Part shown: positions 41,432-64,000 of the stretch, in pieces
How positions within the stretch are numbered: position 1 is the stretch's first letter
How the letters are laid out: each line of letters begins with the position of its first letter
Assembly (NCBI GenBank): GCA_000708835.1
Contig: DF237336.1
Coordinates: 25,454 to 89,453, forward strand
DNA: 64,000 bases
Source: Klebsormidium nitens
Taxonomy: Eukaryota; Plantae; Klebsormidiophyceae
Direction of reading: 5' to 3'
Program-made: the position numbers and the translations under genes
The notes under the pieces: generated by a model
Database searches by the model: none
Seen by the model: the letters and a program-made list of their open reading frames with translations, nothing else
What the model was told of the DNA's origin: nothing

Positions 41432-41527
41432 CTTCTTACTTCAGGCGCAGACCAACTTGTGAAGCCTGAAGGTTCGGTACGGGTTGGGTATAGGAATGCT
41501 GGACCACATAGCCACCGCGGGAGGCTA

Positions 41528-41737: not shown

Positions 41738-41921
41738 TACGTCCAGCATGCAGTGAGACTGGCAGTGAAGCTCAGCTGGCTCGATCGCGACGCGAACGCC
41801 GAAGGCCAAGGGACAGCAAGCCTGCTATATGAAGGTCGGTGGTAAATCTGGGCCACTCACAGGCCACAGGCCACTCTCAGCCTGAAGCTAATGAGAGTTT
41901 GCGCGGCGGACATCAAAAGGC

Positions 41922-44660
41922 ATGGTCAGCTTGCAAGTATGGCGTGAGGTGGCCGCAGCTCAAGGTGTTGGCAGAATGCTGGGTGCATTGCTGGCATGTG
42001 CCCTGTACTTTGCTTCTTCTAGAAACTTCGCAAGGCGACTCAGAAACCAGGTCACCAGTACAGGTGGCGCTGGCAAGATCTGGCGTTGTGCGGCGCCCTG
42101 CGGCAGAGCTTGTACCTGCTTCATATGCTGCCAGGTGTCCCAAGAAGCAAGAAGATGCTTCTATGAGTCAGCATCTAGTCAGCAGTTGGTGACTCAGCAC
42201 AATTGGCGGCGGCATCCAATGGCGCTCTCCGACGTCCTGTGGCAGAGTTCAGAGCTCTGTCTGATGGGGTTCCATGATCCCCAGTCTCAATTTCCAGATA
42301 GAGAAAGAGTTCACTTTCTGGAGGAGCATTGTCAGGAGCTCAGGAGCTGGCAGTCTGCGCTCGGCGCATCGCGCACTCTCACGCCTGGACATGCGCAGGT
42401 GAGTAACTTGTGTTTCGTGTATCTCTCTGACATGTGAAGGATGCACTTCTGGAAACGACCGCACGCTCAGAGAATGCTAGCCTGCATCAAAAATCATACT
42501 AGATGCTTGATTCTACACACGTTCACAGCCTCGCGCAAGTCAGGCTTGCACGTGCGATTCTCTGGCATGGGTTTGTCCTTGCACAAAAGTATACCGGGTC
42601 TTTGGTCTCAAGCAGGGACAGGTCATGAAGCTGATGTTGGCTTTGACTATGATCCATTGAATGCTTTTCTGTATGCAGGTTGATTGCCTGCGAAACGGAG
42701 AGTCTGTGGTCAGCCGCGCCGCGCATTGGGCTTCGAGGTAAGCCCCGTGCCTAAGCTTATCCGCTGATTTGACTGGCAGCCCTGCACAGTTGCAGGCTCA
42801 CAGGATTGTGCTGTCAGAGCGCGAGTCGCATTGCTGTCGTCCACCTTCATCAGAATGTTCACCCAAGATTGGTTGCTCGTCAATACGCCTTCAAACTCCG
42901 AGGGTCCCGCGGGAAATTGAATGGTCATACTTCTTGCAGATGGCAGAGACAAGTATACTGCTGCAGCACAAGTCAGCAGCCTCTCATGACAAGAAAGGCG
43001 CTCCTACCGCTGAAGTGCTGCCTTTCTCTGTGGTGAGCCCACCAGACTTGTTGGCTCGAGTTTGCTGCCTGGTTAGTCAAGTCCTGGGACAAGGCATGGA
43101 CCAAGAAAGACATACTTGCAGTGTTGACAAATTGCATTGCTGATATGCCTAAAGCAGTCCCTGTGCCAGGTACTTCCAAGGCTGTGTTCTGCTGCGGTGG
43201 TTGGCGAGAGGATCTTTAGTGTGGTTGAGGGAAGTGATGCAGAGACCAGTCTTTTGCATGCTTTTGCCGCTCTTCTGTCCTTATCTCTAACCCTCCTTCT
43301 GCAGGTTGGAAGCAGACCGGCGGAGGAAGCCGCTCAGTGCTCATCTGGCGTCTCGCCCAATTCGAGCAATCCCCCGGTCGCCCCCGTGCATGAGGTGGGG
43401 GGCGGCGCAGACGATGGCGCGGAAGTCAAGACAGGTCCTGCGAGCACTTGGGTAAGGCCAGGTTGATTGCAAGTCAAAAGTTCCGCCTTGAAAGTCCAAA
43501 GTGCTTATATCTACGAGGCAACTTTTGACTGCTAGCCGCCACTGCTCGCAACGTTCATCAGGATCATGGGTGGGATGGCCTTGAAGACAAGTCAAAAGTC
43601 TCTCTTTCGAAGGCTGATATGCTTAAATTTACGAGGGAAGTTTTGACTAGTGGGCGCCACCGCTGACACCATTTTCAGAAGACGGCTGGGCCGGGAGTCA
43701 ATTTTCCTATCCTGGAAGGCTGAGATGCTTGTATCTGCGAGGGGTGTTTTGTTTGGTGGGCGCTGCCGCTGAACACGTTCACCAAGGCTCATGGATGGAA
43801 TGGTTTTGGGGCTCTTGCAAGTCAGAAGTTCTCTTTTAGAAGACTCGAATGCTTATATCTGTAGGGCAACTTTGACTGATCAGCGACACCTCTTACAACA
43901 TTGATAGAATCGGTGGCCACAGGAGTCAAAAGCTCTATCGAGACATTCCTGAACATACTCATGAGTGCGGGGATTTTTTGACTCGTGGGCGCTGCCGCCC
44001 CAATTTTTTTCAGGTTCATGGGTGGTATGGCCATGAGCTCTGCCAGTCAGAAGTTCTGTCTTGATAGTCTGTGCTGCTTATACCTTCAAGGGGTGTTTTG
44101 ACTGCTGGGCGTTGTTTTCAAGGATCAGGGGCGGAATGGTTTGAAGCTCTGCAAGTCAAAAGTTCTCTCTTAGAAGACTCGAATGCTTACATCTGCGGGG
44201 CAAATTTTGACTGGTCAGTGCCATCGCTGCCGATGTTCTGTAGCATCGAGGGTAGGTTGGCCTTGGCCCTAATATGTCCCTACACCCTCTCTTTAGAGTT
44301 GTGCACCAACCTTCCACTCCACAATGAGTGCACGTTAGTTCCTTCGCTCATGACTTGAGATCTGACGCATCGTACCTCCGTTGGCCCCTTTGCAGGACAC
44401 ATCCGGCGCACCATGCTGCGCCGCTCACCCGCTGTCAGACATCAGAGCGCTCGTGGCGAGCGCGGCCAGAGGCTTCCTCACCAGCTCAAAGCGAGGCCAC
44501 CGCATCTTTCGGAAGGTGGCGGGAAGCCTGTGCCGCCGTGCTAAAAAGGAGCTCGGCTCTGCAGGCCTTCTTTGGTCGAAGGCTGCCTGGGATGGGGGCC
44601 TGCCCGATATCAATTTCGCACACCATCTCTGCTTCGGTAGAGTATTTGCCTCCTGTTGGT
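41922..44660 (+). CDS. Probable additional spliced exons, possibly the 5' part of the primase-helicase gene
   Basis: Coding-like segments ending in strong donors: ..TPGHAQ|gtgagt at about 42398 and ..GPASTW|gtaagg at about 43451. An acceptor ttgcag lies at about 44395. The link to the primase exon was not established. Confidence 0.35.
43469..44215. repeat. Repeat family A, array 1: about 7 degenerate 105-125-bp units, each with a dyad AGTCAAAAGTT..AACTTTTGACT
   Basis: Units start near 43469, 43587, 43693, 43817, 43922, 44043 and 44150. The first unit has a perfect 11-bp inverted repeat (43472-43482 / 43520-43530) with a 37-bp spacer containing TGCTTATA. Confidence 0.85.
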
Positions 44661-44857
44661 TAAGGGGCGGGAATTTCTCTCTCAACTTTAACCCTGGGTT
44701 GAGTGCGCTCCCGCCAAGAAGCGCAAACAGTTGAGCGACTCGTGGTGGTTCCTGAGAAGCAGGCTCACACGAATCCTTAGGCTAGCGTGCATGTGGAAGG
44801 CGATGCTGGTCCAGTTGCACAATCCGCTGATCGTTTCTCAAACTTTGAACTCTGCAG

Positions 44858-47800
44858 AGGCACACGACGACAATCTATGGCCAACACTGGTTCAAGAGCA
44901 AGGAGAGTCCGACCGGCCGGGGCCCGAAGGACCTCGCCGTGGCCTGGAAGACCCTCCACGGCCACGACATCCTCATCGCCGCTGACATCGCGCGAGATTC
45001 TGGTGCCAAGATGTTCACCAGCTTCCAGAACGTTCCTGAGCTGCTGGCGTACTGCGCACGTCTCGGGGGCCAGAGCAAGCACCTGTACGAGTGCCTGCTC
45101 GAAGAGACCCCCTCGCTGCTCTACTACGACCTGGACTACTACGTGCCATCAAGCCTGTGCGCGAGCGACTCCGAGGGGGTGATCAGGGCGCGGGACGCAG
45201 AGTTTGCTGAGCGGAAGCGGCACTTCAAGCGACTTAGGGACGGCTTTTTGGAGGCGGTTCTGGGGTTACCGGAAGAGGCGGTCCGGTTCGAGGAGAGCAC
45301 GGCACACGGAGAGGTCCCGGGGGGTTTCCGGTTCAGCGTCCATGGGGTGCTCAAGGGGTTCTGCCTTGAGGACCGCCGAGCGCGGGGCCTATTTGCAAAG
45401 GCATTCGACCACTTCCTAAAGAACCCGCCCCCGCAGCTGGCGCGCAGCGCCGAGTTCGTCTGGACGGAAGATCAGCGGGGCCGCCCAAAACTGATCTGGG
45501 ATGGCTCGGTCTACTCCAAGTTCCAGAACTGGCGCATGCTGCGTTCGAGTAAGAAGGGGAGCGGTCGCGTCCTCGAGCCAAGCGAGGGCAGCTCGGAGCT
45601 GATTGCGGACCATCTGGCGGGGCTCTACTCGGCAGCGGAGCGGCAGCGCTGCGCCCAGTTAGACGCGGCGCGCCTGGAGGCGTACCTCCAGCAGCATGCG
45701 CCCACCTTGTCTCGACCACCGCGTCCCACGATGCGGGTGAGAGATACGGGCCAGCCGGTAGATGGCGGGCAGAGTTTGGCGGACCTGTGTGAGCAGGAGC
45801 AGCGCGTGCTGGTGGAGTGCTATCAGCAGGAGCACCCCGGCGCTACGCCCGCGCGCGTTCACGTCGTCGGCGCGGGGGTCTTCACGGTCCACTTCGACGT
45901 GCCGGAGCCCATGTGTCTCCTCGCCGGCCGTCCGCACATGTCCCCGGGCAACAACAACACGTACCTGCTCTACCGGCGGTCCAGGCCCGGGGTGGCATTA
46001 TACAAGTGCCACTCCGCCTCGTGCAGGTGAGCGATTGCAGGCGACGGTGGTCATTTGGTTCGATATCGAGCTACCGAGCAGTCTGGTCCATGAAGCGTGT
46101 TTTTTATGGAGAGCCCAAGCTAGACGGTCGAATATTGGTTCAAGTCGCCAAAGTGTATGCGTTCGAATCAGCTGCTGTCAATAGCATTGTAGGGTGATGC
46201 TAGGATACTTCAGGGTCGATAGTCACAGGGTTCGTCCTGGCACTCTGTAATTCCGGCAGTCAGTCAAAACTTCCCGTCAAAGTATAAGCATTGCAGCTTT
46301 TCAGGGTGGAACTTTTGACTAGATTGGCCAAGCCCGGCCATACCTCGTCGTTCATGAGAATTTCGTGACTAACAGCATGGATCAGTCAAAACTTCCCGTC
46401 GAAGTATAAGCATTGCAGCGTTCTAGGTGGGAACTCTTGACTCGCAAGCAAGCCCGGCCATTCCTGGTCGTTCACGAGATTTCGGGACTAACAGCGTGGG
46501 TCAATCAAAACTTCCCGTCGAGACATAAGCATTGCAGCCTTCCACGGCGGAACTCTTGACTCGCAAGCAAGCCCGGCCATTCCTTGTCGCTCGTGAGACT
46601 CTGTGGCAGCGCGGACCAGTCAAAACTTCCCGTCCAGATATAAGCATTGCAGCCTTCCAGGTGGGAACTCTTGACTCGCAAGCAAGCCCGACCATACCTT
46701 GTCGCTCGTGAGCGTTCCAGGTGGACACTTTTGACTCGCAAGCAAGCCCGACCGTCCCTTCCGTTTGAGAATTACCCTTCGAGCTAAAGCGTGTACCCTC
46801 TCGTTGTGTAGCGGAGTTGCACGTCTTCTCCATTTGGAGACGGGGCAAATCACGGGCTGGACGGAGGACTACGTCAAGGTGGACGGCATGCGCCCCTATC
46901 CGCTCTTCTCCATCGACTCCCCCGCCAAAAACACGATCCTGGCGGCGGCCAACAAGGGAATTGGGAAGTCGAAGGAGGGGAACGGCTGGCTGGAGAGGCT
47001 GCTACAGAGATTCAAGTTTGCAAACTTCGTCATGGTCGCGGCCAACGTCACGCTCGCCCGCAAGTATGCGGAGGATCTGGCGCGGCACGGCATCGAGGCC
47101 ACGCTCTACCTCGATCTGCCTGGAAGGATTAACGACGAAAGGGTCGTTGTCTGCATAAACTCCCTCCCCAGGCTAGCTGCGAGCTTTGACGTGGTCATCA
47201 TGGACGAGATGGACATGATCCTGTCCAACATGAACTCGGACGTCATGGCCTGCAAAAAGAGGGTCTTCTTGGCGCTGGAAGGGGCGACGCGGCACGCCAA
47301 GATCGTGCTTGGCATGGACGCCAACATCGGCAGCCCCCGAGTCATGCAGTGGCTGCACATGGTACGGCCAGATGCTGCTCTGCACACGATTCGCAACCGC
47401 GGGGTGTACCCAGGTGAACGGAAGGCCACAATCAAGTACATCCCCGCGTCCATGCGCTTCCAGAAGGACCCCTACGGCCCGACCATTGCTGAGACGATGG
47501 CCTGCCTGCAGAGAGGCGAGCACGTAATAGTGAGTCTTTCCTAGCACCCACTGACCCCTTTGTGGCGCAAGAGCACAAACGAACTTTTACCCCGCTCCTC
47601 ACCTCTAGAGCCCGAGGAGGATTTGAATATGTGCTTCTAGTTCGTGCCAGTAGTCTACGCCCCATCCACCTTTGCTTATTTTAGATCGACGGGGGACTCT
47701 TGACGCTCGCTTCTGTTTCTCTCTTTCAAATGTTCTGGTGAAACTGAAAGCATTCGAAGTAGACGCCCAAAAAGACCATCAGGATTGCTCTACCCTCACG

Positions 47801-50222
47801 GCCTAATCGGAGTCTACTGACATGGCAGTTGCTGAATCCAGAAGGTTTTGATTCTGCAGAGCTTTAGCAAAAGGAACGGCAGGCCTGTATGCCCTTTTTG
47901 GTCAAAGTCAGCGAAGGCTTAGTCTGTTGCGCGACAGATTCCTGCAACGGAACCATTGTGCTGCCGTATGCGCAACAGGGTTCCGATTTACGCCACGGAT
48001 TTGCTCTCTTCCAGGAAATATACGTTAGACTGTCCCAAACCTTCTGAGAAGGGAGGATTTCTGGGGAGCAATTCGTTTGTGGTGACGTGGCAGCTCTCTG
48101 AAGTGGAGCAGCTGTCAGTTAGCGGAAAGGAGGCGTTGTCGAACCTTGATGGATCTCCAAATACTGATGCTGCGTCTAGCTTTCACCGACCTGAAATGAG
48201 TCTATCGATGCTAACGCTTGTAAGTGCCTTGTGTTTTCTTTTTATTTCATTCGAATGTCTTGGACCAGACGAACCACAAACAGGCCCGAGATGTTGTGAA
48301 TGTCGACAAGATTCTCAATCCGCACGTTACCTTTTTGCAGGCACCCTCGTCGAGCAAGACATACGTTCTCAAGCTTGAGGAAGCCTTCAAGCAGCGCTTC
48401 CCGAGCGACGGCCCGACCGCAAAGTCGGGGAAGTTCTTCTACTCCAAGCCGACGACGGAAGCGGCGAAAGACGCCCTCGAGCTGGCGGTTACTGACCCCG
48501 ACACTCACATGACGGCAGATCTGTGCGCCTCCTCGCCTGTGATCGGCCCTGGCATCTCGCGAGAGCGGCCGCACTTCGACAAGCTCATCGCTTTTGCGAT
48601 GAACAGCTTCGAGCGCGGTCCGACCGTCGAAACGTTCCTCCAGCAGCTCTTCCGCGATCGCACTGTCACCGACTTCACGATCTATGTGAAGGAAGGCGCG
48701 GGCCCCCAATGGCTTCCTTCCACCGTTGAGGACGTCTTCTGCGCGATCGAAGATGACGATCGCGAGCTTGCCAAGCTGCTTGGCAGCACCGAGCATCTGG
48801 ACTTTCTGTTGGCCCCCTCGGGAATGCGGCCAGTCTGTGACAGGAACTCCCCCAGCTGCGTTTTGTACGCGAACAACATCCTCACGGTCGCCAACAGCTT
48901 CCGGAATTACCGGGAGCTCCTGTGCGCTGACCTCATCAAGCAGGGCTTTGTCGTCAATGAGGTCTGTCTCGACGACAAAGCCCCATCCGTTCAGGTGCGC
49001 AGAGTGGCCAACGACGACGACAAAGATCTTGCCGACGATGTTTGGCGGGCCAGGTATGTGGTCGATGACGAGGCGTATGGCAAACTCCTCCAGAAAGATG
49101 AAATCGACACGCTGGATGAGGTGGAGGTGCGGCAGAAACATATCTATGAGTGCATCCGCAATGTGCACAAGGTTGATCCTCGTCGGGTCGACCACAACTA
49201 CGAGGTGGTGCACTGCGGCAAGGAGCTCGTTCCGTACCAGAACTACATCAGGTGAGGGCCGAATAGAAGCAAGCTGTGACTTGGTCGAATCGATTCTGCT
49301 CTGGTCTTTTCACCGTTTTGTCAGATCAAGTGCGAGATCTTTCTCTGCTTGTTCCAAGCAATCAACGCTTCTAAGCATTGCCTCTTTGCATTTTGGGCTT
49401 TCAATCGTCTCTGCCATCTTTCTCTGCGCCTTGCAAAAAGATGTCGGTTGCATTCTTCAGCTGTTGTAAGAGTGACGCCATATGACTGCTAAATGCAAGG
49501 AGTCAACTTGTCATCTGGCAAACACGAGGTGGACCAGACGCAAGCAGATTTCGTGATCAAGCTTTCTGCAGGCTCTAGTTCATACTGACGATATCATGTG
49601 CGTGCGCACAGGGAGAGGAACGGATGGTTTGGATGCGACCCAGCTGCTGTTGGAGTGTAACACCCTGTGTGACTCTTTAATGGCTTTCCTTGACAGGTTT
49701 CAAACGACCCCTTTCTTTGACATCATGGACGAGCTTACGAGAGCCTTGAAGGAAGGTGACATGGAGGGCGTCACAAAGGAGTACGTCGCTGCCAGGGGCG
49801 ACATGTCGCGTCGGGTGCCCTTTGCCGCGATGCTTCTGGCAGCTCTGTTGGGGTGCCAGCCAGGGGAAGTGGAAAGGTGTAAAGAGGATGGGTTTGCGGT
49901 GGAGGAGGATACATTGCAAGTGATCCACGACACGGTGCTCGGGCCAACGCCTGAGCGGCTCAGCTTCGTTCGCGACTTTTACGGGATAGACCAGCCGGCT
50001 CGGGACCTGTCAGCAACAATGAAGCGTAATGCCATCAAGAAGATTCTCCACGTAGGCCTCGGGCTCAACCATGTCGCACCAAAGAAGTCCAACGGGAAAT
50101 TTGTTGCTGGCCGGCCCCACCTTTTCAAGCCGCTATTGTGGCAGGAAGTGCGAGAGAAGTACGGTCAGCTCGATGAGTACGAGGCGGCACTACCGATAGA
50201 GAGATGCATGATACGCACGTAG
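44858..50222 (+). CDS. Spliced AEP primase (PrimPol/NCLDV-herpes type, with Zn finger) fused to a UL9-like SF2 origin-binding helicase
   Basis: Exon 44858-46026: LYYDLD (motif I), FSVHG (II), WDGSVYSK..WRMLRSSK (III) and C..H..N..C..C Zn finger. Phase-2 intron 46027-46811. Exon 46812-47529: ANKGIGKS, VIMDEMD and GMDA. Phase-0 intron. Exon 48341-49251: APSSSKT and SPVIGPGIS. Last exon about 49572-50222; that junction is unresolved. Confidence 0.8.
46257..46762. repeat. Repeat family A, array 2: about 4.5 units of 115-122 bp, inverted relative to array 1, lying inside the primase-helicase intron
   Basis: Units start at 46261, 46383, 46502 and 46617 (cagtcaaaacttcccgtc..tataagcattgcag..gaactcttgactcgcaagcaagcccggccat). 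The reverse complement aligns to array 1 units. Confidence 0.9.
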
Positions 50223-50709
50223 AAGTAGCTTCGGGTGCTGGTCGGTACGAGGAGGACCCTAGTGCAGAAGTGATAATCATGATTTATTGATTATTGAAGC
50301 AAAGGGTTGGCGCCGTTTTTTTCAGAACATTTTGAGGAGCTGTTGACTGTAGTGATACTTTTTTACTTACAAAGTAAAAAGTTGCACCATTGCTTGTGTT
50401 AAAAAGGGGATTCTGGATTCCGAGCATTGCGCCATTCAATATCACTGAAGACAGTGTACATCATGAAAATTGTCGTACTTGCATATGAGTGATCAGGAAT
50501 GTGTAAGCTTATGCTTGAAGGCAATCATCTTGACTGCTAGATGCCATCATGAGCCCGGACCACGGATTTGAATAAAGATGCAGGCTGTAATGGCCGACAT
50601 ACTCACATGCTAGTCAACACTTGCACCATTACTACTTGATTGTTCAATATTGAGAGGCAACTTTTGACTATTTGTCATAGTCGCTTACAACCCTTTCTAA
50701 AGATCATAG

Positions 50710-51237
50710 ATGACAACCGTGATGACCCCGACAGCCACGCCTTCTAGCTCGCGTGTCGCGCATGTACTTAGGGTGACAGTATGGGAGCTGGATATATCAA
50801 CGATGGAGCAACTTCCGGATGGGTGCATGCTTTTTCGAGCCGTAGGGGTCATCTTCGAAGGCCGTCAGGAATGCATTCGCAAGCTTCGACCCGGCCAGGA
50901 GCTTGTGCTTCGCAAGCATTTGGGGAACGGATATGCCATATACGCTATTGGAGTTTTTGACCCGGCGGATCGCGAGAATCCTTTGGGGTTCGTTGCGCGC
51001 AACATCAAGGATCATGGAGTGTTTGACACGGTCCGCCAAAGGTCGGAGATGCCGGCACGGGTGCATCGCATCAATCAAGGCAGAGGCCGACATGGGCTGT
51101 GGGGATTCATGGTTGCGATTGCGGCGGACCGCGCAGCGTCCCCTGTTGCGGCCTTTGGTACAAGCACCAACATGCCTCATGTTGATCATGTTTTCGATGA
51201 TAGAGTCTGCCAGATTGTGATCAACCGGCGAACTTGA
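50710..51237 (+). CDS. Stand-alone HIRAN-domain protein, copy 1 (175 aa, intronless)
   Basis: FRAVGVIFEGRQECIRKLRPGQELVLRKHLGNGYAIYAIGVF..LGFVAR fits the HIRAN pattern VxGVxFxGRQ..L.L.REPxNxYDxxAIxV..LGYVP. Confidence 0.7.
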   Translation: MTTVMTPTATPSSSRVAHVLRVTVWELDISTMEQLPDGCMLFRAVGVIFEGRQECIRKLRPGQELVLRKHLGNGYAIYAIGVFDPADRENPLGFVARNIKDHGVFDTVRQRSEMPARVHRINQGRGRHGLWGFMVAIAADRAASPVAAFGTSTNMPHVDHVFDDRVCQIVINRRT

Positions 51238-51300
51238 TTTGTAACACGTGACAGGTGGCAGCTCGAGAAGAAGCTGGTTCNNNNNNNNNNNNNNNNNNNN

Positions 51301-51590
51301 ATCTAATGGGCGTTTCTGGTATATCCTGCAGGGCATGGCCGGGCTGGCCCATCAAGCGCAGGGTACGGCCATCCGGCGCACAATGATGGTGTACCAAGAA
51401 ATGCTGTATTACTTTCTTTAGAATCTAATGGGCGTTTTCTGGTACAACCTGCAGGGCATGGCCGGGCTGGCCCATCAAGCGAGATTCCAGCCATCCAGCG
51501 CACAATCAGAGTGTACCAGAAAACGCTGTATTACTTTCTTTAGAACCTAATGGGCCTTTTCTGGTACATCCTGAAGGGCATGGCCGGGCC
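51301..51590. repeat. Repeat family B, array 1: 122-bp units with dyad TGTACCAGAAAA..TTTTCTGGTACA (left end hidden by a 20-N gap)
   Basis: The a(t/c)ctaatggg motif recurs at 51301, 51423 and 51545. A perfect 12-bp inverted repeat lies at 51512-51523 / 51557-51568 with a 33-bp spacer. Confidence 0.9.
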
Positions 51591-51672
51591 CTTCGAAAAG
51601 GTGTGCACCTCTGCAGCGCCGCGAGCATTTACTTTGTAAGGATATCGCAGTGTTTACTTTGTAAGATTCCGG

Positions 51673-52068
51673 GTGTCTGCAGGACCGCTGGTATCGTGGC
51701 AGGACTCTCGACGCTTATCTTCCACCATTCTGCTTGCGCAGGATCTGCAGCCTTTGGGGAACGGATATGATATATACGCTATTGGAGTTTTTGACCCGGC
51801 GGATTGCGAGAATCCTCTGGGGTTCGTTGCGCGCGACATCAAGGATCATAGAATGTTTGAGATGGTCCGCCAAAGGTCGGAGATGCCGGCACGGGTGCAC
51901 CGCGTCAATCAAGGAAGAGGCCGATATGGGCTGTGGGGATTCATGATTGCGATTGCGGACCGCGCATTGTCTCCTGTTGCGGCCTTTAGTACAAGCACCA
52001 ACATGCCTCATGTTGATCATGCTTTCGATGATAAGATCTGCCAGATTGTGATCAAATGGCGATTCTGA
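51673..52068 (+). pseudogene. HIRAN-domain protein, copy 2, 5'-truncated or diverged
   Basis: 51752-52110 closely matches 50920-51280, including the 3' flank tgatttgtaacacgtgacaggtggcagctcgagaagaagctgg. The N-terminal VGVIFEGRQ strand is missing. Confidence 0.7.
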
Positions 52069-52146
52069 TTTGTAACACGTGACAGGTGGCAGCTCGAGAA
52101 GAAGCTGGATTATTGGATTCTTTTGTGCGCCGTATTTAACAATTAA

Positions 52147-52698: not shown

Positions 52699-53069
52699 CG
52701 GGAATGTGCTATAAGTCCTCAATTCTCATTTTTGTACACCTCCAGTCACAGTATCCAGGGCTAGTGTATTTTGCTAGCAAAATGAACCGCCAGCTTGGAG
52801 ACCAAGTCGGGTTTTGGAGATCGTTATAACCGTTTTCACTGTTAAAAGCTGCTACCCATCTCAATTTCGTACGATCGATTTTGAACGTGGCCATTCATGG
52901 TATCCCGGATTGAGGACGTTCGGATGGTCAAAAAAATCTTAGCAGTATCCAGATAATGTGAAACATGCAAGGGCCCATATAAAGCACGAGACATATAACC
53001 ACCGTAACACAAGGGGAAAGGCTACTGCGCTCGGCATTCGAGGATGGCACTCGAAAGGGTATATATATA

Positions 53070-54032
53070 TTGTTGACGATTCAACAATATATCAATCATG
53101 TCATGCGCTTGTTTCAAGGGTTCAAACGACAACGAGACTTTACCAGCTTCGATTGGATCAAGGATGCCGACGGGATCATCAAGTATTTTCAAGAAGCGTA
53201 TCCCACAAAGCTATCGATGCGGGCCACTGGAATTAACCCGCTCCTTGTGATAGCGCGCAAAGCGTTTCCCGATGACAAACAGCTGTATGATACCTATTAC
53301 CAACGGTACTCGGATATTCGAAAGCTCATGGAAGATGCAAAACCTCCTCCCCAGCAGTTGACAGAGCGGGAAGCGGCCAATTGAAAAACCCTGGACCAAA
53401 TCAATGAACGCCGAAAGGAGCTGCAAAGGCACGTGAATCGCAAGATTCTACACAAGAGGCCCGGAGAATTAAGCGATGAGGACAAATTCGTGCTTTTTCG
53501 CCATCTCATACTGTGCCTTTATAGCTATCAACCAGCAATTCGAAATGACTACAGCAACTGTCCCATTGTGCGCTTGAAAGACACCAAAACTGCCGAGGCA
53601 CGTGAGATCATGTCTGGTTCCGGAAACTATCTCTTGGAGATTGCACAAGACCAATTCCGCCTAGTATTGAACGATTTCAAGACCGTCAAGCACCATGGGC
53701 CTACTTCAATCGACATGTCGACACGATGCAACAATGTAATTGCCGAAAGCCTTCAGGTCTTTCCCCGAAAGTTTCTCTTGTCTCACATCAAGTCGCCCGA
53801 CAAGCCCATGAGTCGAAACTATCTCACCAAGTTTTGCAGCACTGGCCTTTTTAAAGACGCAAGTGTGGGCTCGTGCCTCCTTCGCAAGATCTGTGTCAGC
53901 AACTTCTTCAAAGATGCTCCGAGCATTGCCGAGCGCGACGAGCTCGCGCGGAGCATGTTGCACACGGCAACTATGGCACAACGAACCTACGAGAAGAAGT
54001 TTAACCCGGATGGAAGTTGCATCCAATTTTGA
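53070..54032 (+). pseudogene. Divergent tyrosine recombinase/integrase of the virophage/Polinton-like-virus/NCLDV type, with one in-frame TGA (53382-53384)
   Basis: ORFs 53070-53384 and 53433-54032 share a frame. Catalytic pattern: LYSYQPAIRND (R), LVLNDFKT.K.HG (K), LLRKI (R), LARSMLHT (H) and TY (Y). Confidence 0.8.
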
Positions 54033-54410
54033 ACGATCCTGGACCTTCCTGTCCATCTGAGATACTTTGATGCTCGTGAATGCATCCAGAGGAAGGGTGG
54101 GTGCTTTGATCTCACTCTCCATGTCCATAGAGCTAGTCATCTGGGGCACCTTAAATCCGGCATCCAAAAGACGTCGTGCTGTAGATTTGTGGAGCTTTTT
54201 CGTTCGGCCATTTATGAATCTTTGATATGCTTTCCGTAACAGAATTTCGTCATGATGTCTGTAATGGTATGCCCTCATACTTGCGTTGTGCTTTTCTGGG
54301 TGAATCTTGGCATATTCTCTGTGTTTTTGACACGCTCGACACGGGCATGGGTTGTGCAATTGTGTTGCATAAGAGGCATCAAAGAAGCTCTCATTCATGT
54401 GGTGGACCAT
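53706..54410 (-). CDS. Small basic hypothetical protein convergent on the recombinase; only the N-terminal about 120 aa outside the overlap is convincing
   Basis: CPCRAC followed by the K/R/H/Y-rich helix KHREYAKIHPEKHNASMRAYHYRHHDEILLRKAYQRF, a composition common in small virus-like DNA-binding ORFs. Confidence 0.45.
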   Translation of the reverse strand: MVHHMNESFFDASYATQLHNPCPCRACQKHREYAKIHPEKHNASMRAYHYRHHDEILLRKAYQRFINGRTKKLHKSTARRLLDAGFKVPQMTSSMDMESEIKAPTLPLDAFTSIKVSQMDRKVQDRSKLDATSIRVKLLLVGSLCHSCRVQHAPRELVALGNARSIFEEVADTDLAKEARAHTCVFKKASAAKLGEIVSTHGLVGRLDVRQEKLSGKDLKAFGNYIVASCRHVD

Positions 54411-54522
54411 TTTGAGTCCTGATGATGTGTGAGATTATATTTGCGATGCTTCAACCGCAACTCGATTCAGGTGCGTTTCTCTGACGTGCTTTTATTTCCT
54501 TGTGTGACACAAGGACCTTGGC

Positions 54523-57417
54523 ATGTCTGCATCTGTGAGTGGCGCTCAACAAGCTGGCGGCTCTTGGGCCTCGGCCCCAGGATCTTTCAAAGCCCTAGGC
54601 CCTCATGATGTCGATGAGAGGCTTGTGCTTGTTACCCAAGATGGCCGACTTCATGTGCCTGCAGAGAATGCTCCGATTCAGCCTCATAACAAGCAAAAAT
54701 ATTGGTTGGTAGATGCGATGCGAGCTTTATACAAGCAAGGCATGTACACGGTCCCTCTACGGCTTCAGATGATCAGGGGCAAGAAGGATGCAAGCTTCAG
54801 CGGCGGCGCCTACACGCCCTTGATGGAGTCGTTGGATGGTTGGAAAGAGAATATCAATGCATACATTGCTCGAGCTTCAACAAAAGTGAATGCTTTGGCT
54901 GTACTATGCGGCATATCAGACATCTATGTCGTAGACGTAGACGCAAAGGGAGCTCCGGCCCAAGGGAATAAGCCTGCCAAAGAGGCTGGAATACAGCTCT
55001 GGGAGCGCTTGGTAGAGCAGTATGGTGATATTGAGACATTGAAGGCTCGCACCGGATCAAGAGCGGGATTGCATGTGTATTTTAGCGCAAGCAAAACCGT
55101 TGGTCTGGTGAAGAACGCCAACTTCTCAGGTGTTGCATATGATAACTTAAAGACATGGGCTATCGATGGCCGTGGGCAAGACGGGATTGCTTTCATCTCT
55201 CCATCCAAGTACTACGATGAAAAAAGGACGGAGTACGGCTACCATTGACTTGATTGTGACGAATCAGCACCTCGTGTTGGGATGCCGAGCTGGTTGGTTA
55301 GCTTTCTTAACGAGAGCGCATTCACGGAAGAGCCTCATGCTAAATTCCAATCGTCAAAGGCTTTGCCAACGCCTAGCATTGAAGCGAGCGCGCCCTCAAG
55401 CATTGTAGGGGGTCCTCCCGACACTAGATTGCCTGGATTGGACGCCGCGCTCAAGAGAATCAAGAAGCTCCTCCAAGATAAAGCGCCAGGGGATCGGAGT
55501 CGATTCAGGGGAGTTGGAAAAAGAAGCGCAACGGGCTGGCAAATTCTCAGGTTTAGAACAGTCGGCGTTCGTACATGTTTGAACGGTCACCAACACGACG
55601 CGAACCAGTTCAGCATCCTGAGCAACGGGTGCGTTCTCGTCTACCGCTGCCTGAGCCCTGGGTGCATTGATCGACCAAAGCCCCTGTTAGGCATACATTT
55701 TTGGCCCGAGTGTCTGCCGCTGAGGGTGGCCGGGGGGCTTTTCAGGGAATACGAACGCTATGTGCTCCCTTTTGAGCCACCCAAAGAAGATGGCAACAAG
55801 ACGAAGAAACAAAAGGAAGATGACCGCACAAAAAAGACGAAATTGGACCTGCTGAATCTCACAATGCACATCATGAACCACTACTTCGCTGTCATTCGCT
55901 CGACAAAGGCAATATACCTTGAGACAGTCTATTTGCGAAATCCAAACGGCCAGCTTCTGCCGGAGGAGACCATCATTCGATCTGGCCGTGACTTCCTCGA
56001 AGTATGCAAAAATCTCCAGCTTCAGTGTCTGCCGGGGAATTGCAAGGAGGTTGCCAGATTTTGGGAGAGCAGTTCAAAACGCCGGAAATACGATCAGCTA
56101 GTGTTCGAGCCGGATCCATCCAAAATGTCCTCACGGCACTTCAACCTGTTCAGCGGGTTGAAGTTCCAACCAATTGAAAGCAAATTGACGGAGTCAGAGC
56201 TCGTAGAGTGCGAGGAACACATGCCAAAGCTCATGTGGCACCTCCGCAACATCTTGTGCGATGGCTCAAGTGAGCGCTTTGACTACACCATCCATTGGAT
56301 GGCGCATGCCGTTCAAAAACCTTGGAAGAAGATGGGCGTTGCCCTAGTATTTCGAGGCGGGCAAGGGAGCGGAAAGTCGTCGTTGTGGAGATTCTTTGGA
56401 CGCATGATCCTCGGCGTCAGGTATTGTCTTTACTGCAACCAGATTGAAACGATGATTGGCAAATTCAATTCACTAGGAGCCAACAAGCTTCTCATTGTCT
56501 TTGACGAGGCGAGCAATTGGGGCGGAGCATTTCGAATGAACGATCGAATGAAGTCGCTAATCACTGAGGACGAGACGTGTTTAGAGCACAAAGGCCGCGA
56601 TCCAATCACAGTGCAGGACAAGAGCAACATTGTGTTCACTACGAACAACTACTGGCCTGTGAAACGGGATTCGGATGATCGCCGATATGCTTGCCAGCAG
56701 TGCTCTAATGCCAAGATGGGAGACAAGCCATACTTTGATGCACTCCTGGCAGAGTTGGAGAAACCTGAGACTCCATATCACCTCCATCGATACCTGTCAT
56801 CCATTGACATTTTCCACTGGGATCCCCAAAAAGTGCCGGTCACGGCTTGGGGAGAGGGTTTGAAGGAGCACTCAATCCCACCTCATGTCAATATGATGCA
56901 AGCGCTTCTTGAGAACGGCTGCTTCCATCCTTCTTTGGAGACGTGGGTTGCATCAACCGACATCAAGCGGACATTTGACACCTTCTTGCTTCAATTGGAT
57001 ATCAAGGAGGATCCACATACCGATGTCAACATCTTGATGCGCTCTCTCAACTCCATTTTTAATATGAGGCCGCAGGCTCGCTCGATCCAGGGGGTGCGGA
57101 CCCACAAGGGATGGTGGTTCTCCCCACAGGGCGCTATCTGCGAGGCCCTCCACAAAGGCAAGCTTCTGAGCACGACCGTGGAATGGGTGGACACCTGGCA
57201 ACGGCACGAATACACCGAAGATGAAGAGGGGCCGTGGATGACCAATCCAGAAGCTTTCAAGAAGCTGATTGGTGATCCAAAAGAGTTGCGGCAATCTGCT
57301 GCAGCGCAAAAGTGCTCGTTCTGCTTGAACATTCATCAGTGGGAGGTGAGGAGAGACGCAAATGGGAATGTTGTAACTCGAGACAGAACAAGAGATGATT
57401 CTTCTCAAGGCAATTGA
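54523..57417 (+). pseudogene. Bifunctional primase-polymerase (Prim-Pol) + Zn module + SF3 (D5/DUF5906-like) helicase, about 964 codons, with one in-frame TGA (55246-55248)
   Basis: Prim-Pol motifs IYVVDVD, RTGSRAGLHVYF and IDGRG..FISPS, then YH*LDCDESAPRVGMPSWL in frame into the 711-aa ORF. That ORF has CLNGHQH..YRCLSPGC, Walker A GGQGSGKS, Walker B IVFDE, motif C VFTTNN and DDRRY. Intronless. Confidence 0.88.
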
Positions 57418-57427
57418 GTACGAATCA

Positions 57428-57959
57428 GCTTATTACTCTCTTATTACCCTTGCCGCAACACACACACACATGAAAGTGCCCATGAAAGAAGCCTTAACCA
57501 CATATCACTATTACTCTATTACCCTATTACCCACTCAATTGGATATACAGATTGAGTTTTCTCATTACCTATATCACTACATGACAGATAGAACTTGAGG
57601 CGATGGGTAATGACAAATAGGGTAATACCAATGATCATCAACGACTCCGCATCATGATTGTACTCTTGTCTTAACGGTCATGTGTGATTGTGTAGGATGA
57701 AAAAGAGCATTGAACATGCAATGAAGGGAAATCAATGAAGTGATTCAAGAATGCTAAATAGCTTATTACTCTTTGATTACCCTTACACAACATGCACACA
57801 CATGACAGTATCCACGAAAGACGCCTTAACAACACATGATGTCTATTACTCTATTACCCTATTACCCACTCATTTTGGATATACAGAGTCTCCTCAACAC
57901 CCCCGTCACCACATGAAAGAATAGAACTTGAGGCGGTGGGTAATGAGTAATAGGGTAAT
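57428..57959. repeat. Two diverged about 200-bp direct copies (57428-57626 and 57760-57959), each with 8-bp CTATTAC(C/T) iterons and their inverted counterparts
   Basis: ctattactctattaccctattacccac ... gtgggtaatgagtaatagggtaat in copy 2, with a near-identical layout in copy 1 (offset 332 bp). Confidence 0.85.
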
Positions 57960-58042
57960 GAGGCCAATCAGCAGCCCCGTATCCTCTTTATCAGGTCTGT
58001 CAATGGACTGTTAGCCTCTCTCCAAAAGACCGCGTACTTTGA

Positions 58043-61000
58043 TCACTCGAACAATGTGTCCAGGATCGTTGTGACACGGCTCATCAACCTCTTGATGCTC
58101 GTGATCTGCTGGAGGCTAGCTGCGCATCTCTTTAACCCCGAATTGATGCCCTCCGAGGCTGTCGTGATTGTCCGCTCATGTTGCGGGAAAGAGTCGATGA
58201 AGAGTGTCGGAGCACACGTGTGCGTAGCGTAGCGCTTTGCCCCCGATGGCGCGCAGCTGATGGGCCCCGAATGGAAGCGGTCAACGACAAACAGGATGAA
58301 CTTCGCCAGCTGCGGCACCCGATTGAGGAACCACTCTTGCGCGTTGCACGAAGCGTCCTCCACGACGGTCATGCCTTGCAGCATCTTGAAGGGAAACCGT
58401 GTCAGAAGAATCGTTCCGAGGTCCGAGACCGACTCGCCGCCCTTGAGCCAGTGGTACCCAAAGGGCCCGGTCTTGGCAGCACGCAATGAAGATCCCGGCT
58501 CGCCCCTTGGAAGATCGTGGGTTGGGGGCGCTGCAGTGCTGGATGAGCCGCTCCTCCGTCGACTGTCTGCCGCGGCCTTCCTCACCTTCCCAATCAACGA
58601 ACCGAGGCCGGCCATACAGCAGGGGGTGGAAGGAATAGGTCGAGACAACGCCGACCCGCTCCGCGTAAGTCGTCGACGGCGCTCGAAGGAAGCCGCCCTC
58701 TTCGTAGCAATGGGGCTCACGAACCTCCAAGTCGAAGAGGAGGGAGTTGGCAGTGTAACGGTACGGAAGCCGACCGCCTTAGCCGCTCGGCTATGCATCC
58801 AAAAAGCTGTCGACTGGATGCACACTAAGGCGCTTCCGTAATTTATATATCGATTTCGCGTCGGCCGTCCGCGCGTCGCGGCCGGGTTATCGCGTCGATT
58901 TTCGTTCCGCTTCGGACNNNNNNNNNNNNNNNNNNNNNNNNNNNNNNNNNNNNNNNNNNNNNNNNNNNNNNNNNNNNNNNNNNNNNNNNNNNNNNNNNNN
59001 NNNNNNNNNNNNNNNNNNNNNNNNNNNNNNNNNNNNNNNNNNNNNNNNNNNNNNNNNNNNNNNNNNNNNNNNNNNNNNNNNNNNNNNNNNNNNNNNNNNN
59101 NNNNNNNNNNNNNNNNNNNNNNNNNNNNNNNNNNNNNNNNNNNNNNNNNNNNNNNNNNNNNNNNNNNNNNNNNNNNNNNNNNNNNNNNNNNNNNNNNNNN
59201 NNNNNNNNNNNNNNNNNNNNNNNNNNNNNNNNNNNNNNNNNNNNNNNNNNNNNNNNNNNNNNNNNNNNNNNNNNNNNNNNNNNNNNNNNNNNNNNNNNNN
59301 NNNNNNNNNNNNNNNNNNNNNTTCAATGCCGCTCCCCGTCGCTCGGCATACTCCATAGCAGCCCCTTCTAGCTGACCCGCAAGCCTCAGCTTCTCGCCTT
59401 CGATCGCCCATAGGTGCTCCGTTGCATCATGGAGGGCGGCTAGAGGCGATCGCAACGAGGGGCCCGCCGGCCGGTTTGCGCTCGGCTCGAAGCAGAGGAG
59501 GTTCGTGGCGTAGATGTCCCGGACGAGCGGACGCAGCGTTGCTGGAAAGGTGTACTGTCCGCCGGCAATTGGATGGAGGCGAAGGACGGCCGCCAGCATG
59601 GGGCCGTCGTTGGAGAGGTACGCCAGCCCACGCTCGTCGAGCGGCCCCTCGAGCAACGCGTGTCTCATGTAGCTTCAGCGTGACGATATGCCCAAAGACC
59701 CACGAATAGCGGGGGGTGAGCAACGCGTGAAGGAGGGCTCCGTACGGCTGGAAGTGAGTCGGACACCAGCCGGTCGGCCCCACCGGCCCCTCGTTGAAAA
59801 TCCTTTGCATCCAAGGTCGTCTCGGGACCGCCTGGCAAACGGCACACGTGGCAGGGTCCGCACACGCTCCCGCCTCCGTCACGAAGTCGATCAGGGCAGC
59901 AACGTTTGCCGGAAGCCCCTCCCGCATAGCAACAAACTCCTCCGGCTTCAAAGGTGCGTTGCTCCCTTGGGCCGGAGCTTTCCGAAAGTTGCACCAACGA
60001 AGCGCCAGCGCCCGCACGGCCGGCCGCAACTCGGACAGCCCGTTCCGATACTTCCAAGGGCAGTCGATTCCCTCCAGTGGCACGTCGGAGGGGCGCATTC
60101 CGCCTACGCTTAAAGGAGTGAAGCCCCCAGCAACCTTCGGCGCCTTTAGATCCGGCTCGCAGATGCTGTGCAAGGACGCCTCCATGCTAGAATCCCGCAT
60201 CGCGCTGGAGTTGGCGAAGAAGGTGCCGTCGAAGGTGATGACCTTGTCCCGCCCAAAAGCGTAGGTCGACAGCTCGGAGCTCGCCCCCTCTGCTTGCTCT
60301 GGCCTCAGGGGGTTGCCGGCCGCCCGGGCCTCCGCCTCGGCCGCCTTCACCTCGCTCGCATAGAGGTGGGAGCAATCCGAGCGCGAGCAGACGTGCTGGA
60401 TCCGAGGCCGGGCAGCCAGGTCGTTGAAGGCCTGCATGGCCGAGTGGAACACCCGGTCGTCAAGCCTAGGAGCGTCCGGCCCCTCGAGGCTCCTCGTCGC
60501 CATGTCACCGGCCTCAAAGTTGAGGCTGTGGGCTGCCCCCAGGGCCGCTGCAAAGTGGTTGCGAAGCAGAAGGCCGTGGGAGAAGAGATTGCTGCCGGAA
60601 AAGTTGAAGATGCCGTCCTCCTGTAAGCAAGTAGCAATTGAGAAGGTTAATCTCAAATGGAACGTAATTCTGAGAGCGCTTCAGAAGAATAACGGGCCAC
60701 AAGGTTTTGAAGAGGCCCGTGAAGTTAGAAGCCTTATAAGAGCGATGGCCCAATTGGAGAAGACAGAGAATTGCGAATGCAAATGATTTTGGATGTTGAT
60801 ACTCACCTGACCGTCGTACATAATCGAACAGCAAGCGGCCTCCCGTCCTGGGGCAATGCGGCAGACCCTCCGATAGGTAGTGACCTTGTAGCGCGCCCCC
60901 GCCATCGTCAACGCCCCCTTCCTGCTCTCCACCTGCCATGGGCGGCCGCAGGGAGACAACGCATCCAAAGGTCGAGGCGCGCAAAAGTGCTTTGCCTTAT

Positions 61001-62643
61001 TTCGCTGCCGCACCCCCTCTTCGCCCCATCGCTCACAGAGACTCGCGACGCTCCCTCCCCCCAGGCTCATGACAGTGTCGACCTTCTTGTGGCTGTGCCC
61101 CGTGTCAAGGGCTGCCGCCGAAAGGCACTCCCACGACTCCAGCGTCCTTCGGTGCGTGCGCGCAGCTTTTGAGTCTGGCCGTCGGCAAAAGGGGTCGTTG
61201 CAGACCAAAAGCCTCCTCGCCGCCGCTTCCCGCTGCGCAACCCTCTCGGCGCGTCTCTCAGCAAGAACCCGAGTCGCCTCGCTCCTGCCTTCATCAGTTG
61301 CTCGCTCAATCAGAGGCAAGTTTTGCTTTGAGAGCGCACTCAACAGGTGCCAGCACCGCTCAGGACCCGTGCAGTTGATACTGCTACAGTGCGCAACCTC
61401 TCCTCCAAGCACGCAAACCACGGGCTCCTCTCCGGGGTTGCTCGCAACAATCACTCGGAGGTGCGGCCCCCCTTTCCAAGCCTCCGCGTCTAGTCCACGA
61501 AGGACAACCCCCACGCACCCCCCTTGGTCCAACGGCAACACCCAAGGCACGCCGTCAGTGACCTCCCGCGCGAACGGACGGCTGTCGATCAAGGGCTGCG
61601 AAGATGGCCGCGCCTCCCTGCCACCAGCCGCTCATGAGTTGGGTCGCTTCCAGGAACCTCATGTCGTGGTCACGGCACGCCTTCTGACCACAGAGGCATC
61701 TGAAGCTGCCCATGTGGTCGACCTTGACGAGCCGTGGAACGTTACTGAGGCTCCGTCCCGTTGCAGAGACTTCCAAAAGGCGCCCACTGGAGGCGTCAAG
61801 CTGTGGGAGGAGAAAAAGGCCGGGAGCAACAGCAATCGGAGGGATCTTGCTCCGATTGAGCTCCGAGAGGAGGGCCGCCGTGCCGAGCTCCCGTGGACTC
61901 GCCCCCTGCTCGAGCGCTCTCTTGACACCGCGCCTCAAAAGGGCGGCCGCCTTGGGCTCGCGGCAGTACGGACATGGGGCGAGGTCCCTCCTCTGGACAA
62001 AGAACTGGTAGGCATCCTCGCTTGCCTCCTCTCCTGACCGTACTTCTCGAAGCTCTTTCGTGCTGAGGAACGCTTCATACTTGGTGAAGAGGTCTTGCTG
62101 AGGAACAGGGCACCCACTCGCGCTCGAAACAAAGGGGTGCCCCTCCTCGTACTGAGCCCCCACGCACCGCAAGCACAAGAGGTGCCCCCCGCCGCCTCGG
62201 CAGATGAGTGCCCCACCCCGGTTTCGTTTCCGCTCCCAGATGAAGGGCTCGCTCCCTCGAGCGTAGACCGTCCCTTTCCCGCCACACGTGCGCCCAATAC
62301 ACGTCGAGCCGAATCCGCCCCGAGCAAAAACTCCAGCAGGCCGCAGGCTGAAGGCGAGCCCATAGTCGAACATGAAGTCGGCGCCCCCCTGCTTGGCCGC
62401 ATAGGAGGGGCGGCCCCCTCGCACGCCTCCAGCATTTGGTAGGGGCGGGACGGCAGCCGGGACGCTCTTGATGTCGCTGAAGACCAGAGCCGAGCCTTCG
62501 AAGTGGACCACCGCACAACTCCTGACGGCTTGACCGGCCTTCAGGTTCTCGTGCAGGCTCGCCGAGGCCGCCGGGATGGTCGAGGCAATGAGCACGAAGC
62601 CGGAGGGTCGTTTCTCATCACGGGGCGCCGTCGCAAGATTCAT
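58043..62643 (-). pseudogene. KDZ (Kyakuja-Dileera-Zisupton/HMGXB3-like) transposase with SWIM-like and CxC modules; frameshifted, one intron (60621-60806), gap 58918-59320
   Basis: Cys/His clusters (CLCGQKACRDH, CSSINC..CWH), YDGQ|EDGIFNFS..LFSHGLL across a phase-0 GT-AG intron, VITFDGT, YSFHPLLYGRPRF, GIFIACC, GESVSD, VEDASC..LNR, FVVDRFH and TTASEGINS. Frame breaks near 61590, 59680-59720 and 58470. Confidence 0.8.
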
Positions 62644-62983
62644 CCTGGGACCGGAGAGAAACGCTTGAGTTTCTGCCACTTTCGATGGCCCTAAGTCTCG
62701 GCGATCCCCTTGAGATTGTAAAGGGGGCGACTTCTGGTTTGGAAAAAACGGTCGCCCTTCATGACCTAAGTTCTGCCAATATGCGAGCCATGCTTGTAGC
62801 TTGCCGTTTATTGGCAAGATCTGTACCACAGTGGCAGTACGTGACTCCGAAGTGGCAAGGGGCGGCGAGGTCTGGCAGCGACGTCCTAAGCGGGAAAAAA
62901 AGGGGCCTTGCTGGCAATTCAGCGCTCTCCCATAGAAACTCTCGTAGGCGATAAGTCCGGCTCCACCCTGCAACTTGCACGGG

Positions 62984-64000
62984 TACCAGAAGAGTCCTAC
63001 TCGTTTATATTCTTTAGACCTTGGATACATGTAATACAACGTTTCCTGGTACAGGCCCATCGTGCCCCGGACGATTGGAAGTCGGATGCCGGCCATACTC
63101 TGCAATTTTAAGGTGTACCAGAAAAAGACCCATAAAATTCTTGGAAAGTAACACATCGTTTCTTGGTATACGTTCACAGCTTTCTCTGAGCTTGCCATTC
63201 CTTGGATGGAAAGCTCACAGCGTTTTGAGAGGCCGGGTGGCATGCCTGCCAATATGTTCTAGATAATAACCCATTACGTTCTTTAGAAGTGATACAGTGT
63301 TTCCTAGTACAGACGGCCCGTTGTGCACTGGACGGTCGGAAGTCGAGGGTGGCCATACCCTGCAACTCGGAGGTGTACCAGAAAAACGCCCATTAGATTC
63401 TAAAGAAGTAACACATCGTTTCTTGGTACGCGTTTGCGACTCCCTCTGAGTTGTCTCCCAAATGAAACGCTCACACCGTTTAAGGGGCCGGCCATGCCTG
63501 CCAAGATGTATCAAGAAATGGCCATTAGATTTTTTAAAAGAAGTGCAATATAGCTTGGTACACACGGTCGTTCCCCGACTAGAAAGAATTTGGCAGTACG
63601 TCACCGAGTGTCCCGCCGCCAGAAAGCTGCAGCGGCCTCAAAGCTTGTGCAGACCCGGCCATGTCCTGCGGGATGTATCAGAAATCGCCCATTAGGTTAT
63701 TAAGAAGTAATACAGCGTTTCTTGGTACACTCTGATTGTGTGTTGGATGGTCGTTCCATGCGCTTGAGGGGCGAGCCCGGCCATGCCCCGCAAGTTGTAC
63801 CAGAAAACGTCCATTAGATTCTTGCGAAGTAATACAGCCTTTCTTGGTACACTCTTGATTGCGCGCTGGATGGTCGTACCATGCGCTTGAGGGGCGAGCC
63901 TGGCCATGCCCTGCACGTTGTACCAAAAAACGTCCATTAGATTCTTAAGAAGTAATACAGCGTTTCTTGGTACACTCTGATTGTGTGTTGGATGGCCGTA
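62984..64000. repeat. Repeat family B, array 2: at least 8 units of about 122-123 bp, inverted relative to array 1, degenerate at the left and homogeneous toward the window end
   Basis: cttggtacac recurs at 63721, 63843 and 63966. The unit gtaccagaaaacgtccattagattct..gaagtaatacagc.tttcttggtacac is the reverse complement of the 51301-51590 units. Confidence 0.92.

Follow-up and report, generated by a model that had tools for sequence, protein, structure and literature searches.

What kind of mobile unit joins the virus-like genes crowded into the right-hand part of a 64,000-nt stretch of DNA (here, the window) from the alga Klebsormidium nitens, on a scaffold of 89,453 bp? An earlier note had proposed that about 20 kb of the window is either one large capsid-less element, carrying two primase-helicases, a tyrosine recombinase, and a KDZ transposase among inverted repeat arrays (families A and B), or a set of nested insertions of related elements. 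We lean, with moderate confidence, toward a narrower answer: the block from position 51301 past 64000 represents one disrupted copy of a multi-copy giant KDZ transposon, of the cut-and-paste kind, with a captured, capsid-less replication and integration module from a virophage or Polinton-like virus (PLV). The unit that moves is probably this B-bracketed block (at least 12.7 kb), not the whole 20 kb. Other copies were visible solely through annotated proteins and contigs from sequencing runs, not as a complete genome.

Recurrence, probable termini, and transposase of the B block

Within the block, the gene order is a truncated HIRAN-like gene, a 183-aa open reading frame (ORF), the recombinase, a small ORF, a helicase combining Prim-Pol and SF3 domains, and the KDZ transposase, which converges on the helicase (Table 1). 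The recombinase, Prim-Pol-SF3, and transposase genes are all disrupted in the window copy. The earlier note had named co-occurrence of the genes elsewhere as a test; at four further K. nitens loci, a recombinase piece, the helicase, and the transposase do co-occur. Among annotated K. nitens proteins of 397 to 1264 aa, nine other helicase genes were retrieved, and in six of their gene models, a recombinase piece is fused upstream of the helicase (KFL_013830020, KFL_014570010, KFL_002740170, KFL_008920020, KFL_003240020, and KFL_011360030). Four of these six loci also have a transposase (KFL_013830010/020, KFL_008920020/030, KFL_011360030/040, and KFL_014570010). On scaffolds 892, 1136, and 1383, helicase and transposase bear adjacent locus tags. 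On scaffold 1457, the KFL_014570010 model extends antisense into the C-terminal end of a transposase gene; therefore, this locus has the same tail-to-tail order as the window. Three JGI contigs (9907, 6407, and 77436 bp), possibly from the same strain, also suggest gene co-occurrence, and that of 9907 bp is common to the recombinase piece, helicase, and transposase; co-location is here judged from equal contig size.

The median depth of DNA run X1 was 245 over positions 51338 to 62676, compared with 14 to 22 for single-copy contigs, or about 11 to 17 times higher, with summed contig depth serving as a rough measure and not as an exact copy number. Because the three genes recur together at four loci and the block is multi-copy, the B block is a real composite mobile family. 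Run X5 has an excess of C>T/G>A changes that resembles a converted library and was excluded as paralog evidence. The cDNA-like run X10 leaves positions 52005 to 63343 uncovered, and no RNA data set was listed for 51301 to 58900; neither is evidence of silence there. No CpG depletion beyond the host level was found in the B block.

The members of each array pair are mutually inverted, as the earlier note had described for family B. A profile built from the right A array only scored six left-array units at 19.6 to 41.5 bits (maximum of 7.2 in 10 shuffles), and a profile from the two outer right B units scored both full left B units at 91 to 107 bits (8.5 for shuffles). Scores of A-B cross-profiles reached at most 7.2 bits, within shuffle noise. 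A faint A-like unit at 50588 to 50690 scored 12.6 to 13.5 bits, with shuffle maxima of 9.6 and 16.2, and was left uncounted. Array units measure 115 to 123 bp, with dyads mostly 53 to 61 bp across. Because folding of seven units was only modest (z from -0.8 to -2.4), paired protein-binding sites seem a better description of the units than hairpins. The motif CCGGCCATRCC, allowing one mismatch, has 15 matches in the window, compared with 2.1 expected; 12 of them fall in the right A array and the two B arrays, and the motif points outward in both array pairs.

The left and right B arrays are likely the terminal repeat arrays of the block. They fit transposase-bound ends because Ectocarpus KDZ elements (9 to 30 kb, with 8-bp duplications) have tandem-repeat termini and long terminal inverted repeats (TIRs) of low identity, according to the available passages of PMC12477816. 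The dyad arrays, which the earlier note had offered as a novel feature, are better read as repeat termini of the KDZ type. Around the A pair, no target duplication of 7 to 9 bp was found; the available part of PMC12730594 gives 8 bp for Zisupton and Dileera and 7 bp for Kyakuja. The B-array pattern had no match in viral and prokaryote sequence collections.

The transposase ORF is 100% identical to KFL_003870160; the gene has three frame breaks, stops prematurely near 58043, and contains an insertion (about 58752 to 59327). Its assignment to KDZ, made in the earlier note, agrees with an Atlas score of 0.93 based on 181 shared features, in which all 10 best family matches of paralog P0086 (residues 600 to 1282) were KDZ/CxC. 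Pfam CxC4 was matched by six of seven transposases with E values of 0.003 to 0.04, below the cutoff. Aligned copies that reach them conserve the acidic motifs DGTF, EDA[AS]C, DRFH, and [SL]E, which we take to contribute the D..D..E catalytic triad. The predicted structure is of low confidence (pLDDT of 31, and 38 in another prediction). K. nitens has at least 17 transposase genes on different scaffolds, constituting a dispersed multi-copy family. With this transposase and multiple copies found, membership of the B block among KDZ elements is probable. The insertion in the transposase gene is a separate high-copy repeat; it is partly N, is absent from other transposase copies, and has a summed depth of 516 (X1) and 1309 (X5).

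Table 1. Features of the right-hand part of the window (positions in the window; tilde, approximate)
Feature	Position	Strand	Remarks
Left A array	43446-44238	-	7 degenerate ~115-bp dyad units
Spliced AEP primase + UL9-like SF2 helicase gene	44849-50222	+	Exons 44849-46026, 46812-~47529, ~48341-49251, 49697-50222
Right A array	46259-46763	+	4.5 units, inside intron between primase and helicase exons
HIRAN-like ORF	50710-51237	+	Weak: Pfam E 0.12; PHROG 18569 E 0.0016
Left B array	51301-51590	-	2 full ~122-bp dyad units and part of another; starts at edge of 20-N gap
3' part of HIRAN-like gene	51749-52108	+	Duplicate of 50915-51277
183-aa open frame	52147-52698	+	No family match; in multi-copy DNA
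Virophage/PLV-type (OLV11-like) tyrosine recombinase	52983-54032	+	In-frame stop 53382-53384
Small basic ORF	54100-54434	-	Weak likeness to small ORF beside helicase of virophage contig L057
Intronless Prim-Pol + SF3 helicase	54508-57417	+	In-frame stop 55246-55248; 3' part is KFL_003870150
Duplicated iteron-like hairpin	57427-57959		Between convergent helicase and transposase ends
KDZ-type transposase pseudogene (KFL_003870160)	57971-62643	-	One intron, ~60624-60806
Right B array	62955-64000	+	8 units, inner degenerate, outer homogeneous; continues past window end

Recombinase, primase-helicase, and the search for capsid genes

The virophage or PLV type proposed for the recombinase was upheld by a homologous virophage gene, found on contig L057 (E value of 2e-8 among 80 viral loci), and by Atlas, in which the nearest clusters were those of Preplasmiviricota (0.98), also with Phage_integrase. 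Virophage recombinases are 23 to 26% identical to that of the window. Pfam gave no match for the recombinase, and a scan of viral contigs with the window sequence alone retrieved no relative; a two-sequence profile retrieved 3738 relatives. The catalytic-type residues R187, K233, R301, and Y336 are present in the window recombinase and conserved in 148 of the 150 best relatives. In a tree of 76 rows, a subset of those best 150, five close recombinases cluster together with good support. The label OLV11-like rests in part on the available passages of PMC4642659.

Contig L057 carries two tandem Sputnik-type minor capsid genes, an ATPase-like gene, an SF3 helicase, the recombinase, and a GIY-YIG nuclease; it is therefore a virophage. 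It provides the nearest viral context for the window recombinase, and the recombinase and SF3 helicase are close neighbors there. The small basic ORF of the window weakly resembles a small ORF of L057 (34% over 41 aa; pairwise E value of 3e-4).

Domain matches bore out the claim of two distinct primase-helicases, with Herpes_ori_bp (E value of 7e-12) in the UL9-like part of the spliced AEP+UL9 gene and Prim-Pol (1.6e-8) plus SF3/DUF5906 (4e-20) in a single frame of the B block, where the N-terminal replicase is Prim-Pol (PF09250). The B-block helicase ORF is 100% identical to KFL_003870150. In a quick tree of 130 sequences (11 duplicates dropped), its family groups as a single 23-member clade, which falls in an unresolved fork that also contains virophage helicases. 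Scanning viral contigs with the helicase alignment gave 137 distant relatives, of which 80 were kept (24 to 35% identical); the window helicase alone gave no relative among viral contigs. Metagenome contigs scanned with the helicase and transposase alignments likewise yielded no relative.

Uninterrupted relatives of 924 to 929 aa exist, and copies 20 to 55% apart retain long open frames. In each of 14 helicase and 8 recombinase comparisons with the window, substitutions are rarer at conserved columns (P < 0.05 in 12 and 6, respectively; the comparisons are not independent). Because of this pattern and the long open frames of diverged copies, the viral genes appear to have once worked: judged from sequence, the recombinase and helicase were functional while the family diversified, and the window copy is dead. 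Proteins P0013, P0070, P0072, P0104, and P0105 are uninterrupted distant members of these families (identity of 42 to 45% for the helicases and 58% for the recombinase). An alternative genetic code was rejected for the two TGA stops in the recombinase and helicase genes, at which 10 of 11 and 11 of 11 relatives carry tryptophan under the standard code. Because relatives have tryptophan there, these stops are nonsense changes or assembly errors.

The iteron hairpin reported between helicase and transposase is present and is duplicated. Its copies (57427 to 57626 and 57760 to 57959) are about 200 bp each and 81% identical, contain TATTACCC/TATTACTC iterations, and fold with z values of -3.7 and -2.7. 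They may represent an origin or a recombination site.

The reported absence of capsid, penton, and packaging ATPase genes stood. Pfam retrieved none from open frames of at least 85 aa between 41.4 and 64 kb, the range that this negative covers and in which very divergent capsids could escape. When 3522 ORFs from 86 viral loci (virophages included) were compared with the same range, they matched solely the helicase, Prim-Pol, and recombinase. Library scans of this range also gave no match for a protein-primed PolB or a Tlr1-like SF1 helicase.

The AEP-UL9 side and the rest of the window

Left of the B block, the AEP+UL9 gene can be spliced canonically into an open frame of some 1110 aa, up to a stop at 50222; further 5' exons are possible. 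The UL9-like part also matches a PHROG replication family (E value of 2e-9), and the AEP part has PrimPol-like motifs and a weak match to human PrimPol (E value of 0.49). Comparison of the UL9 exon with GenBank phages and with viral contigs retrieved no relative. In run X10, the last intron is spliced (49248>49694, GT..AG) and a poly(A) tail follows at 50405; several X10 contigs are identical to the window over the gene. This virus-type, open, intron-bearing, and transcribed gene (44849 to 50405) is a candidate domesticated or element-borne replicase.

The X1 depth is 60 over positions 44001 to 51337, so the AEP-UL9 side has about three to four copies, roughly four-fold below the B block. Introns of the AEP+UL9 paralogs have diverged and are unalignable. 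Two other annotated AEP copies lie at scaffold ends and have different N termini and unrelated upstream sequence; no transposase or SF3 gene was seen on their scaffolds, both of which are cut by scaffold ends. The junction of the AEP-UL9 side with the B block coincides with a 20-N gap (51281 to 51300). Because the right A array lies inside an intron of the gene, a unit that carries the entire gene cannot simply be bounded by the A pair. The AEP+UL9 gene and its A arrays are most likely a separate, lower-copy, and older related insertion or cargo beside the B block.

In the other AEP copies (P0090 and P0091), an acidic region and the primase are preceded by a motif ending in NPGP; presumably, this motif resembles a 2A ribosome-skipping peptide. 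This NPGP-bearing region had no match upstream of the AEP gene in the window. Positions 44400 to 44650 are shared with other transcripts and contigs, with loose ends at 44547 and 44603 and a depth of about 220 at 44497, as for a small dispersed repeat or a conserved exon.

The two HIRAN genes of the earlier note reduce to a single weak ORF and a duplicate of its 3' part within the B block (363 bp, 91% identical). The HIRAN-like ORF probably derives from a related element or from a different copy.

Ordinary host genes, among them a senescence-regulator gene and an RsmB/F methyltransferase gene, occupy the left part of the window. A 231-bp repeat (19150 to 19380 and 19806 to 20036; 97% identical) flanks an N gap and may be an assembly overlap or a small element resembling those with long terminal repeats. 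A 214-bp element at 41526 to 41739, whose 29-bp inverted ends are perfect and start and end with TA, looks like a miniature inverted-repeat transposable element of the Tc1/mariner type. Rfam gave no match in window positions 36 to 64 kb.

Competing readings and known systems

If the B block is a KDZ transposon, its transposase would bind repeated sites in the B arrays (candidates are the outward CCGGCCATRCC motif or the dyads) and would excise and reinsert the block by cut and paste. Dead copies such as that of the window would be mobilized in trans. The recombinase and primase-helicase would, most likely, have been acquired together from a virophage or PLV. The captured genes may have been kept for amplifying or circularizing the excised element, or they may be exchanged among copies as a nested unit; within this reading, the two options appear evenly balanced.

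Several observations weigh against a KDZ transposon with captured viral cargo. Gene orientation is known at only one other locus, and Pfam KDZ (PF18758) is unmatched by the transposases. Both tips of the block, and with them any target-site duplication, are out of view, at the N gap on the left and the window end on the right. The X1 depth falls to about 37 at 62677 to 63343, so B arrays need not adjoin the transposase elsewhere in the genome. For six paired loci, helicase and transposase distances did not co-vary (rho of -0.04, Mantel P of 0.42), which points to module shuffling or to wrong pairing. Finally, among annotated proteins of 397 to 1264 aa, no helicase was seen on the scaffolds of 13 of the 16 other K. 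nitens transposase genes; thus, many transposase copies may lack the replication module.

A bolder version is a self-synthesizing KDZ transposon, stably fused with a capsid-less virophage replicon. The recombinase would circularize the element, Prim-Pol-SF3 would amplify it, starting at the iteron hairpins or dyad arrays, KDZ would reinsert it, and AEP+UL9 would be a second replicase of larger members. We regard this version as possible but doubtful.

Among the alternatives, the one that survives best, although we judge it unlikely, makes a capsid-less, virophage-derived replicon the real unit. Its recombinase would integrate and excise it, Prim-Pol-SF3 would copy it from the dyad arrays or iteron hairpins, and KDZ would be a later passenger. 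The conservation of catalytic-type residues in the recombinase relatives fits this picture, as do the lack of helicase-transposase co-divergence and the existence of more distant intact helicase subfamilies. A recombinase piece lies upstream of the helicase at six of the nine other loci, versus a transposase at four. Capsid-less PLV derivatives are also known (available passages of PMC5499653). However, the arrays, which match the termini described for KDZ and whose units fold weakly, enclose the transposase as well, and at least 17 transposase genes were seen in the genome versus 10 helicase genes.

A somewhat weaker candidate, to which we assign a low probability, treats the whole 20 kb as one element or composite transposon, in which the A and B arrays serve as four related ends, the outermost two of which (at 43446 and beyond 64000) move both primase-helicases. 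The A and B units are alike in length, dyad layout, and outward CCGGCCATRCC; HIRAN-like sequence lies on either side of the gap; and the AEP-UL9 part is multi-copy too. Against this stand the lower depth of that part, the N gap at the junction, A-B cross-profile scores at the level of shuffle noise, and the two other AEP copies, whose upstream sequence is unrelated and whose truncated scaffolds showed no B-block gene. Unalignable introns among the AEP paralogs suggest a greater age. The single large element of the earlier note is thus supported for the B-bracketed block, which recurs and is multi-copy, but is not supported for the AEP+UL9 part, with its quarter depth, introns, transcription, and assembly gap; its option of nested or related insertions fits the whole 20 kb better.

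We consider it improbable that the locus is an ordinary endogenous remnant of a virophage, PLV, or giant virus, with capsid genes past 64000 or deleted and an unrelated KDZ inserted. The recombinase and helicase do have virophage relatives, giant-virus core genes have been reported from K. flaccidum/nitens (available part of PMC5294986), and the scaffold leaves sequence beyond the window. However, no capsid-type gene was found between 41.4 and 64 kb, the nearest viral helicases are just about 25 to 35% identical, and helicase and transposase are adjacent at four other loci (about 75 to 91% protein identity), which argues against one chance insertion. A chance pile-up or assembly artifact at a repeat-rich scaffold end, for which the two N gaps in the region and the HIRAN piece duplicated around one of them might speak, is very improbable and is largely refuted for the B block by recurrence on other scaffolds and continuous high depth.

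As a KDZ transposon with viral cargo, the B block resembles the giant algal KDZ (Kyakuja-Dileera-Zisupton) elements KDZ-1 to -5_Ec32 of Ectocarpus and Zisupton-3_cRei in its ~1300-aa transposase, size above 10 kb, probable tandem-repeat inverted ends, extra genes, and often pseudogenized transposase, as far as these are described in the available passages. The 31.7-kb Zisupton-3_cRei has been excised in Chlamydomonas (10.1101/2022.05.23.493040, in part). Unlike the Ectocarpus elements, whose family table in the available part of PMC12477816 contains no primase, recombinase, or Polinton term, the B block carries a virophage-type recombinase and primase-helicase. No description of KDZ with a recombinase and primase-helicase was found in the literature searched, with Repbase and the original KDZ paper outside the search.

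With virophages and PLVs (passages of PMC4642659; L057), the B block shares a homologous recombinase, an SF3 helicase in close neighborhood, and a small basic ORF. In contrast to them, no major capsid protein, penton, or packaging ATPase was found in the range scanned, and the block has a DDE transposase of the KDZ group, repeat arrays, and Prim-Pol (PF09250) instead. In small eukaryotic DNA viruses, a recombinase and an AEP-type replicase repeatedly occur as a pair, according to the available passages of 10.64898/2026.10.13.758929, which also note TIR-bracketed replication modules in a virus setting. Transpovirons and Tlr1 (PMC5499653, in part) are likewise PLV related with TIRs, and transpovirons lack structural genes; however, they have an SF1 helicase and an inactive PolB domain, not Prim-Pol-SF3 with a recombinase and KDZ.

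Amoebidium Plavaka repeats, as given in passages of PMC11244446, reach 50 kb and have intron-poor genes, many tyrosine recombinases, and flanking transposases. In contrast to the B block, Plavaka is CMC related and not KDZ (PMC12730594, in part), and those passages of PMC11244446 name no primase. In Teratorn, a piggyBac-herpesvirus fusion (PMC10175614, in part), a cut-and-paste transposase and DNA virus genes likewise share one multi-copy element. Unlike the B block, which has only a replication and integration module, from another virus group and with another transposase, Teratorn retains a whole 180-kb herpesvirus with capsid genes.

If the cargo were only a passenger, the B block would still belong to an undescribed giant KDZ family that accounts for several virus-like K. 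nitens genes. If our preferred reading is true, a virophage replication module has persisted without a capsid inside a host transposon, and small-DNA-virus modules as autonomous mobile units, as well as replicative giant KDZ elements, become testable. The B block would then be a second kind of fusion between a transposon and a DNA virus after Teratorn, in an alga close to land plants.

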